Shown: positions 1,641-7,639, numbered from the stretch's first letter. The stretch: DNA of 64,000 bases from Desulfurococcaceae archaeon (GCA_038816475.1 JAWBAI010000001.1:128001-192000); one strand, 5' to 3'. Made by a program: numbers and translations. Notes: generated from the sequence alone by a model not told the origin.

Positions 1641-1988
1641 TTGTTGAGTGGGGAACCGGAGAAAAAAGAGTTTCCAATTCACTGGATAAGCAAGGATGCT
1701 AGGTACAAAGTAATAGAGTTCATGCTGTCCACTAGAAGTGTGACAGAGCTTGCTAGGCAACTAGGTGTTTCACCAACAGCCGTTAGAAAATACATTAAAA
1801 GGCTGTCACATCCTAGCGATGAAGTGTTTGAAAGAGCTATAAAGTCCCTTGCACCCTACGAGATGGAGCCAATACTGGAAATAATAACCGATGACTTAGC
1901 TACCGCTATACGCAAGCTCTATGCAGCTGTGGATGATAACTACAAGGAAACAATAAGAAGAAAGCTGAGAGAAATAATTGGGTTGTAG
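1641..1988 (+). CDS. Helix-turn-helix (XRE-like) DNA-binding protein
   Basis: SVTELARQLGVSPTAVRKYIKRLSHPS HTH; GAGGTG RBS upstream. Confidence 0.8.
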   Translation: MLSGEPEKKEFPIHWISKDARYKVIEFMLSTRSVTELARQLGVSPTAVRKYIKRLSHPSDEVFERAIKSLAPYEMEPILEIITDDLATAIRKLYAAVDDNYKETIRRKLREIIGL

Positions 1989-1990
1989 TT

Positions 1991-2368
1991 TTGTCTAGTG
2001 ATAAGCCTTTTTTATCGAGTAGCAAGATCATAGAAGACTACAAACTACTTTTAAAGTACATGGAGAAGTGTAGATTAACTGGAGCTGAGTGCGAGAAACT
2101 TCTTCCAACATCTCAGATTCTAGCTAAAATTAAAGCACTCATAGAATCACGTGTAGCAACCTTTGAAGATGTATTAGGCTTTGTTGAGAAGGAGTTCTAC
2201 AACGAGATAAACTGCGAGATCTGCGTAGACGCGTTCAAGGAAGTGTATGGTATTAGTGTTGACTGTGATAAGGCTAGAAGAGCTCTAATAGTGCAGATCA
2301 CTGGGTGGTTCATCGAAATACTGGATACACTCGGCTACGTTAAAATAAAGTACTCGTGGAAACCATAA
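1991..2368 (+). CDS. Hypothetical protein with several Cys (CxxC)
   Basis: 125-aa ORF starting 2 nt after the HTH gene; no recognised family. Confidence 0.65.
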   Translation: MSSDKPFLSSSKIIEDYKLLLKYMEKCRLTGAECEKLLPTSQILAKIKALIESRVATFEDVLGFVEKEFYNEINCEICVDAFKEVYGISVDCDKARRALIVQITGWFIEILDTLGYVKIKYSWKP

Positions 2369-2520
2369 AGCTAAAGTAGCACGTGTTATCCGCGTAATGT
2401 TATTCTGCAGTAAGTGTTGTTAGGTTACATTAATATCGATGGTAACCGAAAATACGGAGCATGGGAATGTACGTAGCGATATTATGTACTGAGTACTCTG
2501 GATTATATGGGTGTTCGTGA

Positions 2521-3516
2521 ATGAAAATTAGGACTAGCCATGTAGGTAGCTTTCCGCTCTCTTACTCAGAGGAGAACGTAGTTAGAGCATTGAAAGACAT
2601 GTGGAGTATAAACATAGATGCTCCTCCGTATCCTCAGTTGAGGAGTTTTATTGAAATTTACTTGAATCCCCTGGTATCTCAGGGGGTCTTACACAGAGTA
2701 AAAGACATCTTTGTTGCTGAAAAAAGCAAACTCGAGCTATCCAATGTTAGGTTTACCGGAATACCCGAGGCCGAGGTTACCATTAGGGTTGTCAAGAATA
2801 AGGGTTTAAAGTTTAAGTGGTTGAGAGCACCTGTTACTGGCGCTTTTACATTGGCTTCAAGAGTTTATCTTCATGAAGACTTTACAAAAGGGATTTCAGC
2901 AACAGCTTTAGCGGACAAAGGCTTAGTTAAGGAGTTTTTCGCCGCGTTTGTGAAGGAAGCTGTTAAATACTTATCCAACTTGGGTTACAACATAGTGTTC
3001 ATAGATGAACCATCGTTAACCCTTGTTGTTGGAAAGAAACGACTGCTGTTTGACTACAAAGAAGATGAAATAATAGAGGTTCTAGACGATGTTGGTAAAT
3101 CGACCAGTAGCGATGTAGGTATACATGTTTGTGGTTTGCTTCACCGCAGATTACTGGAGCTAATCGTACGAGTTCCCAGTATAAAGTACATCAGCATAGA
3201 GCTTCACGATACTCCCGAAAACTTTGAATTAATAGAGAAGAGTCTTCTCGAGCTCTACGATAAGGTATTGAGTCCAGGAATAGTTAGTTCCAAGAAGCCT
3301 GTTGTGGAAGACCTGAACGATGCATTGAATGTTCTAAGGGTGGCCTACGAGAGATCAGCGGGGAGAATAGACCTGGTATCGGGTGATTGCGGTTTCAGAG
3401 GTCTAAGGAGTTCTCTCGGGGATGAGGAACGCGAGTACAGTATTTCACTAGAGAAGCTAAGTGTTATTGCAAAAGCAGTTAGGCTTTTTGAGGAGACTAT
3501 CTCAAGGATGAGCTGA
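2521..3516 (+). CDS. Core (single-barrel) cobalamin-independent methionine synthase-like protein, MesC-like
   Basis: HVGSFP N-terminus, PPYPQLR, VTGAFTLA, FIDEPSL, Zn ligands IHVCG...E...GDCG; 331 aa with no folate-binding N-terminal barrel. Confidence 0.85.
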   Translation: MKIRTSHVGSFPLSYSEENVVRALKDMWSINIDAPPYPQLRSFIEIYLNPLVSQGVLHRVKDIFVAEKSKLELSNVRFTGIPEAEVTIRVVKNKGLKFKWLRAPVTGAFTLASRVYLHEDFTKGISATALADKGLVKEFFAAFVKEAVKYLSNLGYNIVFIDEPSLTLVVGKKRLLFDYKEDEIIEVLDDVGKSTSSDVGIHVCGLLHRRLLELIVRVPSIKYISIELHDTPENFELIEKSLLELYDKVLSPGIVSSKKPVVEDLNDALNVLRVAYERSAGRIDLVSGDCGFRGLRSSLGDEEREYSISLEKLSVIAKAVRLFEETISRMS

Positions 3517-3517
3517 A

Positions 3518-5359
3518 TTGCCAGTAGTTGAGCTTTATCCTGGCTACATTAGGGTAGAAGTCGAGAAAGGCTCTACACTGCTTCTAGCTGTGCAAAAAGC
3601 TGGCGTGCCCTTCACAAGCTACTGTGGCGGACTAGGCTCGTGTGGTAAATGCCGAGTTGTAGTGAGCAAGGGAGTTCAAAACTTAAATGCTCCAACTAGA
3701 GCAGAGTTAAGGTTTTTGAACCAGCAGGATCTCGAGAAGAACATTAGATTAGCGTGTCAAGCTAGGGTCTTTGGGGACTACGTACTGATTCGTATACCAG
3801 AGGAGTCAATGGCTGTATCGGGAGGAAGGCTTGTACCCGCAATCGCTTTGAGAGATGACCTGTACCCTCTTAACCCGGTTGTCAGAAAAATACATGTTGT
3901 GTTACCCCCACCAACCCTTGAAGACAATAGATCAGACCTTGATAGACTTACAGGTGCTGTTATCGAAAAAGGGATTGCAGTAAAAGAGCTACACGTTCCA
4001 TTAAAAATACTCCGTGAACTACCAGCTATCCTTAGAAGTAGTAACTGGAATGTGACAGTTGTTTTATACGGAGATGAAGTAATCACTGTAGAACCCGGAG
4101 ACACATCTAGCTACCTATACGGCGTTGCGGTTGACATAGGTACTTCTAAGATCATCGCTGAACTCGTGGACCTAAATAGTGGTGAAACACTTGCGCGAGA
4201 CTTCGTTGAAAACCCTCAACTGGTTTACGGTGCAGATGTTGTTTCCCGAGCTGTATACGCTCAGAGGAGTGCTGAGAACCTGGCTGAGCTACAACGAGTA
4301 GTCGTTAAAGCCATTAACAGTCTGGTGGATAAGCTTGCGGAGAAAAGTGGTGTGAATAAGAAGTACGTGTACGAAGTGGTAGTTGTAGGGAACTCTGTAA
4401 TGCTCCACTTGCTCTACGGCATACCCCCAGATCCTATCATACGATCTCCCTACGTACCTGTTGTTTCTCGCATTCAGAGTTATCGAGCCGAGGACTTAGG
4501 TCTTTCAATAAACCATCTGGGTTACGTATCTTCTCTTCCCATAGTCGGAGGCTTTGTTGGAGCCGATGCGGTAGCCGATATTCTCGCTACACAGATGCAC
4601 AGGAAAAGCGAGTTGTCTCTACTCATCGATATAGGCACAAACACTGAGGTTTTGCTTGGAAACTCCGAGCTGATACTTGCAGCATCAGCGCCTTCAGGAC
4701 CAGCGTTCGAGGGTGCTCACGTATCGCACGGTATGAAGGCTGTTCACGGAGCAATAGAGTCCGTTAGGATTAAGGGTTTAGACGTCGAGTACGAGACCAT
4801 TGGTGGAGTAAAACCTAGAGGAATATGTGGAACAGGGTTGGTGGATACTGTAGCCGAACTTTACAGAAACGGTATTATAGATCATCAAGGTAAGTTCATG
4901 GACGTTAAACACCCGAGGATTGTTAGAGAAAAGAACACTCTCAGATTCATTCTAGCATACGCCAAGGAAACGGCAACAGGAGAAGATATCTACGTTACAC
5001 CAAAAGACATAGAGGCTGTTCTGCTAGCGAAAGCGGCGATAAGGTCCGCGTGGACTCTTCTCATGAGAAAGCTCAATGTAAAAACCTCGGATATAACCTG
5101 GGTCTACGTTGCAGGTTCTTTTGGTACACGTTTAAACATTGACAACGCCATTGAAATAGGCTTGCTTCCCCGTATTGACACAGGTAGAGTAGTATTCGTG
5201 GGAGAATGCGCTATCGTAGGAGCGAAAATGGCTTTGAAATCCACCGAAGCTCGGAGAGAAGTAGAGGAGCTAGTGAAAACGAAAGTCAAGTATGTTGAGC
5301 TTTCAGCCGATCCAGAGTTTCGCAAGGAGTATCTTCGATCACTAGGACTCGGCGTGTAG
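3518..5359 (+). CDS. ATP-dependent reductive activator of corrinoid proteins (RACE; RACo/AcsV-like, ASKHA fold with N-terminal 2Fe-2S ferredoxin)
   Basis: CGGLGSCGKC...RLACQ 2Fe-2S motif; VDIGTS, ENPQLVYGADVVSR, GGFVGAD, IDIGTNTE, GPAFEG, GICGTG, AGSFG. Confidence 0.92.
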   Translation: MPVVELYPGYIRVEVEKGSTLLLAVQKAGVPFTSYCGGLGSCGKCRVVVSKGVQNLNAPTRAELRFLNQQDLEKNIRLACQARVFGDYVLIRIPEESMAVSGGRLVPAIALRDDLYPLNPVVRKIHVVLPPPTLEDNRSDLDRLTGAVIEKGIAVKELHVPLKILRELPAILRSSNWNVTVVLYGDEVITVEPGDTSSYLYGVAVDIGTSKIIAELVDLNSGETLARDFVENPQLVYGADVVSRAVYAQRSAENLAELQRVVVKAINSLVDKLAEKSGVNKKYVYEVVVVGNSVMLHLLYGIPPDPIIRSPYVPVVSRIQSYRAEDLGLSINHLGYVSSLPIVGGFVGADAVADILATQMHRKSELSLLIDIGTNTEVLLGNSELILAASAPSGPAFEGAHVSHGMKAVHGAIESVRIKGLDVEYETIGGVKPRGICGTGLVDTVAELYRNGIIDHQGKFMDVKHPRIVREKNTLRFILAYAKETATGEDIYVTPKDIEAVLLAKAAIRSAWTLLMRKLNVKTSDITWVYVAGSFGTRLNIDNAIEIGLLPRIDTGRVVFVGECAIVGAKMALKSTEARREVEELVKTKVKYVELSADPEFRKEYLRSLGLGV

Positions 5360-5451
5360 AGTAAAAACATGGTGAAACACTTAGCTAATGTAATGGTGAA
5401 CAAAGGAGTTCCCATGAGTAAAGCAGACTGGTCTATATGGTTAAGAGAGTT

Positions 5452-6735
5452 CTAGTAGGAACCATATTTCAGCACGGCATTAATGTATGCTTTTACACTA
5501 GCTGGGTTTACATCTGCTGGAAGTTCTGCAACTCCAGGTGCTATCATGAACCCCCCTTCGGGTTTAATCTTCTGAAGGATGTTTTTAACGTACTCTTCGA
5601 CTTTCTCAGGAGACTGGTAGAATAAAGATGGTGGAATACCACCTGCAACAGCTGTATGACCCTTCAGCTTGTCCCATACGTTTTTAACAAAATCCCTTGG
5701 TCTTTCAAACCACGCTATACCCCAGCCCTTCGGTAGCTCGAGTATAGTGTCCACGTGAGGAGAGTGATCTCCCTCGAAGAAAACGAATCCCTTGTACCCT
5801 TTGCTCACCAGGGTTTCTATGATCTTCCTCAGGTAAGGCCAGTAGAACTCTACGTAGAGTTTAGGTGGCAACATCTCGTTCAAGTGTAGAGGAATGAAGA
5901 ACAGCGTTAAAGGTTGCATCGGTGGTATGGCTGTAGCAACTCTCAGTATGGCATTCATTAGTGCGTCACAAGATGCTTTGAAATCCTCAGGGTATCTTCT
6001 GATGTCCACCATAGCTCCTGTCGGGTGTCTGAGGAAATCTCCGATCAAGTCAGCTGGAACATAAGCGTTGGTTAATGGAATTAACGGATACCACTTAAGC
6101 TGTGATAGTATTTCAACCATGAAGCTAATTGTCCTCTGAACAGCTATTCCAGCTCTTATCAACATACCGTTCCAATGCGTAGTACCCGGTGTACCCAGCC
6201 CTGGACAAGCTCTCGGCAGGATCACGTTGTGTATGAACTCAACAGGGTTCTCAGCCAGCTTCTTATATTCATTCGGCTCCATGAACGCTCCTCCGACGAA
6301 CTGTGGATGCATGTGGTCGTCTAACTCTCTTCCAGGCCATTTGCTCCACTTGTCTCTTAGCACATCGTGTAGTGGACCGGAGATGAACCTTATGAGGTTG
6401 GAGAAGTCGGGGAAGTCGGAGAAGGCTACAGCCAGTATGAAGCCCTCGAGAAGGTAAGGAACGAAGATCAGTCCAAAGTCAGATGGATATTCAAGAGTGT
6501 ATTTCAAAACAGCATTCTTCGCTCTGGGAGTTAACTCGTAGGAGAGCTCGTACCACGTTAAACCTGTTTGAGTTATCATGAAATCTCCACTGGGTGCAAG
6601 AAGTGGTACCCTATCGGGTGTTCTAAGTTCAATTATATTCATAATTCTCGTTAGTTTTTCCTTGGCTACAACCTCTGGTTCTCTTCTATGCTCCTCCATC
6701 CATTTAGTCAAATGCTCGAACCGGGTACAGCTCAT
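5452..6735 (-). CDS. Uroporphyrinogen decarboxylase-fold putative corrinoid methyltransferase
   Basis: PDRVP N-terminus, EFYWPYLRKII, FFEGD, AGGIP, GGFMIAPG; directly downstream of the corrinoid protein gene. Confidence 0.8.
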   Translation of the reverse strand: MSCTRFEHLTKWMEEHRREPEVVAKEKLTRIMNIIELRTPDRVPLLAPSGDFMITQTGLTWYELSYELTPRAKNAVLKYTLEYPSDFGLIFVPYLLEGFILAVAFSDFPDFSNLIRFISGPLHDVLRDKWSKWPGRELDDHMHPQFVGGAFMEPNEYKKLAENPVEFIHNVILPRACPGLGTPGTTHWNGMLIRAGIAVQRTISFMVEILSQLKWYPLIPLTNAYVPADLIGDFLRHPTGAMVDIRRYPEDFKASCDALMNAILRVATAIPPMQPLTLFFIPLHLNEMLPPKLYVEFYWPYLRKIIETLVSKGYKGFVFFEGDHSPHVDTILELPKGWGIAWFERPRDFVKNVWDKLKGHTAVAGGIPPSLFYQSPEKVEEYVKNILQKIKPEGGFMIAPGVAELPADVNPASVKAYINAVLKYGSY

Positions 6736-6739
6736 ATTT

Positions 6740-7393
6740 TTACCCCTTACGCTTGGATTTTTCTTCTACCCAGTTCAGCATTATCTTAATACCTTCTCCT
6801 GCGTCGTTAGCCCAAGCGTCTGCACCTACGTACTCGCAGATGTACTGATCCACTCTTCCTCCTCCAATGATCACCTTTATTCTTCTTCTGAGGCCAGCCT
6901 CTCTAATTGCATCAATGGTCTTTTTCATTGACTCTATTCCGCTTGTTAGTAAGCATGACAATCCCACTATATCTGGGTTGTGTTGCTTAATTGCCTCAAT
7001 AAACCTGTGAGGTGACACATCAACGCCAAGGTCTACTACCTCAAAGCCTGCAGCTTCAGCCAACGCTACTACGATGTTTTTGCCAATATCGTGTATATCT
7101 CCTTCAACGGTTCCAATAACGAGTTTACCTAAAACCTCCCTTGGTTTACCCAGTGTTTTCAGCTTTTCTCTAGCCATGCTAGAGATGGTTTTCATTATCT
7201 CAGCTGCCATAACCAAATCAGCAACGAAAAACTCTCCCTTTTCGTATTTTTCTCCAACAACTTCGGCAGCTCTCCTCAGATCCTCGAGGAGAAGACGCGG
7301 ATCCTCTACCTCTAACCGTCTCTTAGCCAATTCAATCGCTTTAACCTCATCGAGCTCGACAATGGCGTTCACAAGCTCTTCCGATAAACTCAT
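6740..7393 (-). CDS. Stand-alone corrinoid (B12-binding) protein, MtaC/MttC-like
   Basis: Four-helix cap domain plus GTVEGDIHDIGKNIV (DxHxxG), DLGVDV, GLSCL, IIGGG; likely start ATG at 7393. Confidence 0.93.
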   Translation of the reverse strand: MSLSEELVNAIVELDEVKAIELAKRRLEVEDPRLLLEDLRRAAEVVGEKYEKGEFFVADLVMAAEIMKTISSMAREKLKTLGKPREVLGKLVIGTVEGDIHDIGKNIVVALAEAAGFEVVDLGVDVSPHRFIEAIKQHNPDIVGLSCLLTSGIESMKKTIDAIREAGLRRRIKVIIGGGRVDQYICEYVGADAWANDAGEGIKIMLNWVEEKSKRKG

Positions 7394-7639
7394 ACAACCC
7401 ATCCTCAGACTACAAGCAATAGAATTCCCATGCTTAAAGCTTTTCTTTAAGAATGCAACCACTTAACTTAGCAGATTGTCCTAACCAATGGATAGCCGGT
7501 GAACCCAGCAATGTGTAGAGTACTGCATGATTAAACTACCTCGCACACATGTGAACAAGCGCCGTGCGCCTCGATTTGTGCTGAGCCATATTGGTCGATA
7601 TGTAACTGTGAAAGAATTCATAACACCTGGGGGACGGGT

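Follow-up and report, generated by a model that had tools for sequence, protein, structure and literature searches.

Two convergent operons lie near the start of a 64,000-nucleotide (nt) stretch of DNA from a Desulfurococcaceae archaeon. This whole stretch is called the window here and the genome that holds it is labelled G000, while other G-numbers denote genomes and L-numbers related loci. One operon encodes a core protein like methionine synthase MetE, reduced to a single barrel, and a reductive activase of corrinoid proteins (RACo). The other encodes a stand-alone corrinoid protein and a methyltransferase of the UroD fold. The listing of open reading frames and the family scans find all four genes intact (Table 1), and in this they confirm a preliminary description made from the sequence alone, which had reported a single-barrel MetE-like protein, an activase gene starting 1 nt further on, and a converging corrinoid/UroD-fold operon. 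The MetE-like and RACo genes are joined as TGA-A-TTG, with the 1-nt gap in the middle, and on the minus strand the UroD-fold gene starts 4 nt past the stop codon of the corrinoid-protein gene, making a two-gene operon. Rfam finds no family in the 64-kb window, and hence no cobalamin riboswitch. When compared with L007, the nearest related locus, the ratio of nonsynonymous to synonymous substitution rates (dN/dS) is 0.08 for the MetE-like gene, 0.20 for RACo, 0.15 for the UroD-fold gene, and 0.16 for the corrinoid-protein gene, so all four are under purifying selection.

Table 1. Features of the four-gene locus, with positions counted from the first letter of the window (aa, amino acids)
Feature	Position	Strand	Size	Basis
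MetE-like gene: core single-barrel MetE-like zinc methyltransferase, proposed MT2 (methyl-corrinoid-protein:homocysteine methyltransferase)	2521..3516	+	331 aa	Pfam Meth_synt_2
RACo-type reductive activase of corrinoid proteins: N-terminal 2Fe-2S ferredoxin and ASKHA ATPase domain	3518..5359	+	613 aa	Pfam
Spacer between the convergent operons	5360..5451		92 nt	read from sequence
UroD-fold methyltransferase of the CdmB/MtoB/MtvB kind, proposed MT1 (substrate:corrinoid protein methyltransferase)	5452..6735	-	427 aa	Pfam URO-D, phmmer
Stand-alone corrinoid (cobamide-binding) protein, methyl carrier	6740..7393	-	217 aa from ATG	Pfam

The MetE-like gene is the sole PF01717 match in G000. Its Pfam match is weak (Meth_synt_2, 30.4 bits) and covers the catalytic MetE domain alone, yet the residues expected of a methionine synthase are all in place. 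Across 34 of 34 family members there is no variation at the zinc ligands H202, C204, E227, and C290, already described as intact, or at S10, Q39, and D162, where homocysteine is bound. In an alignment with the C-terminal halves of split MetE from the same order, S10, Q39, D162, H202, C204, E227, and C290 fall on Ser433, Glu484, Asp599, His641, Cys643, Glu665, and Cys726, respectively. The glutamine at the Glu484 equivalent is shared with the MesA-like and MesC-like groups of the alignment, whereas split MetE has glutamate. A glutamine at this place in MesA and MesC agrees with the account given in the relevant passages of Price et al. (2021, PMC7857596). The AlphaFold2 model of the protein has a predicted local distance difference test score (pLDDT) of 95.6, and a Foldseek search with it gives Thermotoga maritima MetE (1xdj) and MesD (3rpd) as the best matches, at query TM-scores of 0.67-0.72; the fold is that of the C-terminal barrel of MetE. 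The match to MesD is structural only, with 16-17% identity; MesD is marked by its partner MesX (DUF1852), by a need for oxygen, and by its occurrence in aerobic bacteria. A phmmer search against PDB sequences returns nothing meaningful (best E 0.99), and the protein is placed by the fold search alone.

A profile search of 1.84 billion representatives yields 288 proteins at E<=1e-3 and 55 at E<=1e-30. NCBIfam models were run on 84 representatives out of the 108 that reach 280 aa: 10 pass the cut-off of PRK00957 and none passes that of PRK06052 (best 372 against 387 bits), and the window's close relatives match neither model well. The MetE-like protein itself reaches 45.8 bits with NF002119/PRK00957 (44.9 in a second scan; cut-off 258) and 64.1 bits with NF004712/PRK06052 (cut-off 387). 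We infer that the first model describes MesA and the second MesC, because of the control genomes matched by each and of the H-x-H signature of the PRK06052 rows; in the alignment, the window has H-V-C where these rows read H-L-H.

The same separation is seen in a quick maximum-likelihood tree of 77 rows, built from 12 of 120 listed proteins, 60 of 150 representatives, four split-MetE halves, and the window protein, after dropping everything under 280 aa. With branch support from the Shimodaira-Hasegawa-like approximate likelihood ratio test (SH-aLRT), the window sits in a clade of 18 rows (99) within a clade of 38 rows (98), and the PRK06052 rows form a clade of their own (100), apart from it. 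The four C-terminal halves of split MetE are a clade (100) inside the PRK00957 group of 13 rows, the two together being supported at 98, so that the protein does not cluster with split MetE, a grouping that the preliminary description had named as one that would refute it. The closest group beside the window's family in the tree is a large family of core MetE-like proteins from Asgard archaea, one of which is annotated by its depositors as a “putative methylcobalamin:homocysteine methyltransferase.” This sister group is not one named from Dehalococcoides, and no MesB sequence entered the comparison; MesB is delimited by Price et al. as scoring at least 130 bits to DET0516 in a genome with the corrinoid iron-sulfur protein (CoFeSP; AcsC/AcsD), as far as that part of the paper goes (PMC7857596). 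By these comparisons the MetE-like protein belongs to a small distinct family outside the MesA-like, MesC-like, and split-MetE groups.

The three partners have the domains that their proposed roles call for. The corrinoid protein combines the B12-binding_2 cap with a B12-binding domain (Pfam) and scores 162 bits with the NCBIfam model pyl_corrinoid, and its His-on motifs D99-x-H101-x-x-G104, S146-x-L148, and G177-G178 recur without change in an alignment of 12 such proteins (12 of 12). In the activase, Pfam recognizes Fer2 (37.7 bits), RACo_linker (89.8), Raco_middle (194.4), and RACo_C_ter (277.5), and the NCBIfam model AcsV gives 492.6 bits, under its cut-off of 800. The UroD-fold protein (Pfam URO-D, 61.7 bits) has one strong match of solved structure, CdmB (PDB 9rui), with a phmmer E-value of 1.4e-55 over the full length, residues 25-427 being aligned to 20-429; no MtaA-type structure in the PDB is matched at E<=1. 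CdmB is the zinc-free chloromethane:corrinoid methyltransferase of a three-part system, and the O-demethylases MtoB, MtvB, OdmB, and VdmB are given as its nearest relatives in the consulted sections of Bernhardt et al. (2026, PMC13222342). The UroD-fold protein thus being a homologue of a proven MT1, its earlier assignment as the MT1 is upheld, and it would be a methyl loader of the CdmB/MtoB/MtvB clade. Its close homologues come from Desulfurococcaceae, Ignisphaera, Nezhaarchaeales, Bathyarchaeia, and thermophilic Bacillota. The names Ignisphaera, Desulfurococc-, Thermoprote-, Bathyarchae-, Thermovenabulum, and Tepidanaerobacter are absent from the eight text supplementary files of PMC13222342. 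In the genus g15, UroD-fold orthologues of 62-67% identity adjoin a corrinoid-protein gene. Taken over all four proteins, the domains fit the proposed roles. A structure prediction of the MetE-like protein in complex with the corrinoid protein gives scores of 0.21 and 0.14 against a mark of 0.32, which speaks neither for nor against binding.

The grouping of these genes can be followed in 67 related loci, mostly from Desulfurococcales, that were obtained by scanning species-representative genomes. Partner genes were sought by tblastn within the DNA of each locus, using several queries per class, and Pfam confirmed their identities in 13 sampled loci. A corrinoid protein is encoded in 40 loci, RACo in 34, an MtrH-like enzyme in 24, an MttB-family enzyme in nine, and a UroD-fold enzyme in five; 42 of the 67 have the corrinoid protein, RACo, or both. 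Where 5 kb or more flanks the MetE-like gene on either side (32 loci), the corrinoid protein is encoded in 19, and each of these 19 has a methyltransferase gene as well. The commonest layout, found in 22 loci, has MtrH-like, RACo, and corrinoid-protein genes, with the last lying 77-188 nt upstream from the MetE-like gene and divergent from it. The MtrH-type cluster is also found in named Thermogladius genomes (L048 and L052). The window's own order, MetE-like and then RACo, recurs in L007, L008, L009, L056, L058, and L065. The window-type UroD-fold gene is found in just three of the 67 loci (L007-L009), where the four genes stay together. In the genus g15 the genes are unlinked yet all present, and the corrinoid/UroD-fold pair is itself a conserved unit. 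As a control, tblastn in 80 metagenome loci of the Asgard sister family (L084-L163) found the corrinoid protein, RACo, MtrH, and MttB in none, and a UroD-fold gene, 4-5 kb off, in two. The four-gene arrangement is more than chance, because of the linkage in 40 and 34 of the 67 loci, its absence in the Asgard control, and the purifying selection on the genes. An extension of the linkage to the whole larger clade was considered and dropped, as the corrinoid protein occurs in none of the 80 Asgard loci.

Two further Desulfurococcaceae loci (L022:4890-8976 and L031:5814-10076) join an MtrH-like gene, the MetE-like gene, a divergent UroD-fold gene, and a corrinoid-protein gene in one same-strand cluster, an Mto-like set with a MetE-like gene besides.

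The pattern is sharper at the level of whole genomes. In the same 201 genomes of the order, used for all counts, the MetE-like family occurs in 59. The corrinoid protein (B12-binding_2) is found in 60 genomes, 56 of them among these 59; together with the 42 loci above, this speaks against a MetE-like gene that is usually unlinked from corrinoid genes, which would have refuted the preliminary description. RACo is present in 55 genomes (54 within the 59), MtrH-like enzymes in 47 (all within), MttB in 21 (all within), and URO-D in 23 (21 within). Split MetE, as detected by Meth_synt_1, is distributed the other way: of the 122 genomes that have it, only four belong to the 59, and the other 118 are among the 142 that lack the MetE-like family, while 24 genomes have neither form. 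The exceptions are few. Three MetE-like genomes are without the corrinoid protein, two of them incomplete and one with a stop codon in its MetE-like gene, and the four genomes with the corrinoid protein only are all less than 90% complete. The two URO-D matches outside the 59 are a cross-match on a split-MetE gene and a gene in a 75%-complete genome. These counts suggest that the MetE-like family stands in for split MetE in the order, and that the corrinoid protein and its activase accompany it.

The loading enzyme varies by lineage: MtrH-like, and thus dependent on a methyl-pterin, in most, MttB-like in some, and UroD-fold here. The preliminary description needs refining here: since the loader of most relatives is an MtrH-like methyl-pterin enzyme, independence from pterins does not extend to the whole family, and the window's lineage alone is left with just the UroD-fold loader. 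No MtrH-like gene is found in any of the 142 genomes without the MetE-like family.

Two genomes appear to have lost these genes or to be losing them. In G113 (93% complete), the MetE-like gene at C2:23978-24580 is truncated, with an internal TAA, and the corrinoid protein, RACo, MtrH, and MttB are all missing from the genome; the whole system appears to have been lost together. In G004, a complete genome of the genus g15, the orthologue of the UroD-fold MT1 (C1:1065781-1067700) has in-frame TGA and TAG stops and the corrinoid-protein gene beside it is cut to a 72-aa frame, and the pair looks like a decaying copy.

The assembly of G000 comprises 1.15 Mb in 18 contigs and is 92% complete. It has one MetE-like gene, one URO-D gene, and a single corrinoid protein of the methyltransferase type; three further matches to B12-binding, one of them under the Pfam cut-off, fall in radical S-adenosylmethionine (SAM) proteins. 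MtrH, MttB, and methylenetetrahydrofolate reductase (MTHFR) are not found in G000 by tblastn, nor MtrH and MttB by family search, and in the same genome there is no CdhD match over the cut-off, no homocysteine domain of MetH (PF02574), and no match to Meth_synt_1, the N-terminal half of split MetE. This outcome favours the preliminary description, which had named such a genome search among its checks. That description had also said that Desulfurococcales are not known for the Wood-Ljungdahl pathway, which is correct for this genome but too broad for the order, since some Ignisphaera are reported to have the pathway in the part of the source that deals with them (PMC6421429). Among the 59 carriers, G000 alone has no candidate loader besides the UroD-fold enzyme. 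G201, the genome that holds L007 and whose MetE-like protein is 98% identical, is also without MtrH, while the genomes of L008 and L009 keep MtrH elsewhere.

The source of homocysteine in G000 is most likely the SAM cycle, because S-adenosylhomocysteine (SAH) hydrolase is present and complete and no true trans-sulfuration or sulfhydrylation enzyme is found: the best match in this genome to the pyridoxal phosphate (PLP) enzymes of cysteine and methionine metabolism scores 27.6 bits, where members of its genus reach about 375. The module would therefore regenerate methionine rather than make it de novo. A one-carbon pterin pool probably exists, and no enzyme that takes a pterin to the methyl level was found in G000. 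A serine hydroxymethyltransferase is encoded at C11:23234-24346 of the same genome. Another gene, at C7:58630-60015 (L074:1144-2529), encodes a 461-aa protein with a PterinBD-DUF4346 domain and a 21-bit match to CdhD. With such a match and such a domain it was rejected as a CoFeSP; we take it to be an enzyme of pterin biosynthesis.

What the analysis shows is which genes are present, the ligand residues and the fold, the linkage and co-occurrence of the genes, and the purifying selection on them; which way the methyl group moves, that homocysteine accepts it, and what donates it are inferred. The four genes probably encode a self-contained cobamide methyl relay, running from a methyl donor to the corrinoid protein and on to homocysteine. 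The RACo-type activase would use ATP and a low-potential electron to bring the cobalt of the corrinoid protein from Co(II) back to Co(I). The UroD-fold MT1 would then transfer the methyl group of a small methylated compound to the Co(I) form; by analogy, this compound may be a methoxylated aromatic or a methyl halide. Finally, the MetE-like enzyme would hand the methyl group from the corrinoid protein to homocysteine. Across the family, the corrinoid protein, the activase, and the MetE-like enzyme would make up a constant trio, to which a variable fourth enzyme brings the methyl group by loading the carrier. With MtrH in the fourth place, the set would be an analogue of MetH in four pieces, and with MttB it would parallel MtgBCDE of Ruegeria. 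The preliminary description had proposed a complete system of MT1, corrinoid protein, activator, and MT2 in which the core MetE is the terminal enzyme, and comparative genomics lends support to that proposal, as far as sequences can tell.

Several points weigh against this reading. The case for the MetE-like family is one of comparative genomics. The tree bears on the MesA-like, MesC-like, and split-MetE groups and not on MesB or MesD. The genomes in the co-occurrence counts are akin and not independent, so the counts overstate the statistical weight and are taken as patterns. Partners are missing beside many MetE-like genes: 25 of the 67 loci have none of the five within their DNA, including 12 of the 32 in which 5 kb or more flanks the gene on either side; physical linkage is therefore not universal. 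MtrH-like enzymes can act as MT2, as MtoA does, and for this reason clusters of MtrH, corrinoid protein, and MetE-like genes alone do not fix the direction in which the methyl group moves. CdmB and the window's MT1 are only distantly related, and the substrates put forward for the latter are conjecture. The 92% completeness of the assembly leaves room for a missed MtrH, MetH, or transporter, although a second assembly, of a near relative (G201), is also without MtrH. Lastly, of the means to obtain cobamide, neither CobS nor a permease of the FecCD type was found in this 92%-complete genome.

One way in which the relay could be misread concerns its end point, since the acceptor might be a thiol other than homocysteine, such as sulfide, a coenzyme-like thiol, or a small mercaptan, and the module would then dispose of the methyl groups of the MT1 substrate or transform them. 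Anaerobes that pass O-methyl groups to sulfide are known, and zinc barrels that alkylate thiols take varied ones. The weak Meth_synt_2 match (30 bits) and the NCBIfam models for methionine synthases, all far under their cut-offs, would also suit such an enzyme. What makes another thiol unlikely is that the MetE-like family replaces split MetE across the order, and that homocysteine is produced by SAH hydrolase in G000, where no other remethylating enzyme was found.

The two operons might also be neighbours rather than one system. The corrinoid/UroD-fold pair would then be the leftover of an Mto-like set whose MtrH-like MT2 has been lost, and the MetE-like protein and RACo would work with some other donor. 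Such independence can be seen in the genus g15, where the pair lies about 200 kb from the MetE-like gene, in the two stop codons of the UroD-fold gene of G004, and in L008 and L009, which have the same gene set but with MtrH elsewhere in the genome. Against it, the four genes are together in all of L007, L008, and L009, and they are under purifying selection when measured against a relative that is also without MtrH. Moreover, G000 has a single methyltransferase-type corrinoid protein, so that RACo would have no other client and the MetE-like enzyme no other carrier. Separate operons are therefore an improbable explanation in this genome.

The flow could also be the reverse, in a demethylation route that harvests the methyl groups of methionine derived from peptides. 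The MetE-like enzyme would then move a methyl group to the corrinoid protein, taking it from methionine or some other methyl thioether, and a second methyltransferase would pass it on. Zinc-dependent demethylation of thioethers by corrinoid systems of the MtsA type is known. An MtrH-like gene is present in 47 of the 59 MetE-like genomes, and the MtrH-like MtoA is an MT2 that passes methyl groups to tetrahydromethanopterin, according to the sections of PMC8630106 concerned. However, no MT2 is left in G000 to act as receiver (the MtrH, MttB, and MetH modules were not found), and the one partner there belongs to the MT1 type. Partners of the MttB family and those like CdmB are known to load methyl groups, as described in parts of PMC12478193 and PMC13222342. 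The near-exclusive distribution with respect to split MetE (4 of 59 against 118 of 142 genomes) also suits a methionine synthase, and we hold reverse flow to be distinctly unlikely. That the protein is an ordinary cobalamin-independent, methyl-pterin-dependent MetE, as the public annotation of its relatives has it ([quoted passage not shown]), is barely credible for a single 331-aa barrel that stands apart from the split-MetE C-terminal halves in the tree, co-occurs almost perfectly with the corrinoid protein and activase, and has no Meth_synt_1 half anywhere in G000. None of these alternatives fits the complementarity with split MetE together with the conserved homocysteine site, and the relay to homocysteine remains the preferred reading.

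Set beside known systems, the relay recalls several and coincides with none. Like the core methionine synthases MesA, MesB, and MesC (Deobald et al., 2020, PMC7005905; Price et al., 2021, PMC7857596; both for the passages on these enzymes), the window protein is a single MetE barrel that lacks the folate domain and retains the residues for zinc and homocysteine, and a corrinoid protein is the expected donor. Unlike the MesA-like and MesC-like groups, it lies under both NCBIfam cut-offs, falls in its own clade, and has H-x-C in place of the H-x-H of MesC. MesA, MesB, and MesC are predicted to draw on MtrA or the CoFeSP of central pathways, whereas here the donor would be a small corrinoid protein devoted to this task, served by an activase of its own and by a loader that can be exchanged, and no CoFeSP was found in the genome.

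In size and domains there is a likeness to MtoABCD of Methermicoccus, where MtoB (47-48 kDa), MtoC (22 kDa), and MtoD (68 kDa, with an N-terminal 2Fe-2S domain) match the window's MT1, corrinoid protein, and activase, going by the protein descriptions in Kurth et al. (2021, PMC8630106). The MtrH-like MT2 of that system (MtoA) is not found in G000 or G201, and the core MetE-like gene takes its place; the acceptor is tetrahydromethanopterin in Mto, and would be homocysteine here. The CdmBCA proteins of Acetobacterium (Bernhardt et al., 2026, PMC13222342, in the part consulted) are likewise a three-part corrinoid system with an activase, and CdmB is the closest solved relative of the window's MT1. 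That relationship is a distant one, however, and the MT2 of Cdm is the pterin-binding CdmA.

The logic of the MttB-type and MtrH-type clusters of the MetE-like family is the same as that of MtgBCDE of Ruegeria pomeroyi, in which the demethylation of betaine and the synthesis of methionine depend on one and the same corrinoid protein. Both there and in the three-part split MetH of Phaeobacter, a stand-alone corrinoid protein is common to an MttB-family demethylase and to the methylation of homocysteine, with a pterin methyltransferase alongside (PMC12478193, in the passages on these systems). The homocysteine module of Ruegeria and Phaeobacter is of the MetH type (PF02574), while that of the window is a MetE-type barrel, and the hosts are aerobic marine bacteria in the one case and anaerobic hyperthermophilic archaea in the other. 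With MetH itself, the clusters of MtrH, corrinoid protein, RACo, and MetE-like genes share a division of labour, with separate proteins for the pterin methyl donor, the B12 carrier, homocysteine methylation, and reactivation. The homocysteine and reactivation modules are not homologous to those of MetH, and the lineage of the window has the UroD-fold MT1 in place of the pterin module.

The idea that a corrinoid protein is the donor for core MetE is old, and modular corrinoid systems are well known; what appears to be new is the present arrangement. As the preliminary description had supposed for this lineage, no paper was found that reports, for Thermoproteota, a core MetE accompanied by RACo, by a corrinoid protein of its own, or by a loader of the MtoB, MttB, or MtrH type, in a search that left subscription journals outside. 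A corrinoid protein has been proposed as the physiological donor since the first archaeal enzyme, and by the relevant parts of the two papers on core MetE it was never identified (PMC7005905, PMC7857596). Here a candidate donor, its activase, and a loader are encoded beside the synthase and co-occur with it across the order, and the question of the donor becomes testable, with all the parts for a reconstitution named. Within the sections that cover them, Price et al. found no methionine synthase but split MetE in Thermoprotei (PMC7857596), and the MetE-like family is a candidate for this role in the 55 of its 59 carrier genomes that are without split MetE. The role of MtrH in non-methanogens such as Ignisphaera was called unclear in 2019, in the part of that study devoted to it (PMC6421429); these orphan enzymes might serve to load a corrinoid protein from which methionine is made.

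If the relay operates as proposed, the regeneration of methionine in a hot-spring heterotroph would hang directly on environmental methyl compounds and cobamides. A broader scenario can be put forward tentatively, with somewhat less than even confidence. The whole SAM methyl cycle of this lineage would be fed from outside, with the corrinoid relay from an environmental methyl compound (a methoxylated aromatic or a methyl halide) as its sole remethylation, no pterin step, and a scavenged cobamide. Core methionine synthases would gain a fifth kind in this family, the first with its own corrinoid protein, activase, and plug-in loader, and the orphan MtrH proteins of non-methanogenic Thermoproteota would be the methyl-pterin loaders of a MetH analogue in four pieces.

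A few observations on the genome and its surroundings can be added. G000 encodes the corrinoid protein and two B12-binding radical SAM enzymes, despite neither CobS nor FecCD being found in it. Near-identical DNA is present in hot-spring metagenomes from several studies. Positions 2400-7600 of the window are also found in part in runs labelled as manure (X17, with contigs 95-99% alike) and as insect gut (X18), which is surprising for an archaeon of hot springs and may be due to carry-over between libraries. Contigs of an RNA library (X19) cover 25 of 30 bins over the same positions, with pieces in all four genes; this cover is not counted as transcription because DNA can occur in such libraries, and the bins without cover carry no meaning. 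Just 5' of the MetE-like gene and on the same strand, window positions 1641-2368 encode a 115-aa helix-turn-helix protein and a 125-aa protein without a family. Both genes are kept only in the nearest relative, L007, and the helix-turn-helix protein may be a local regulator.

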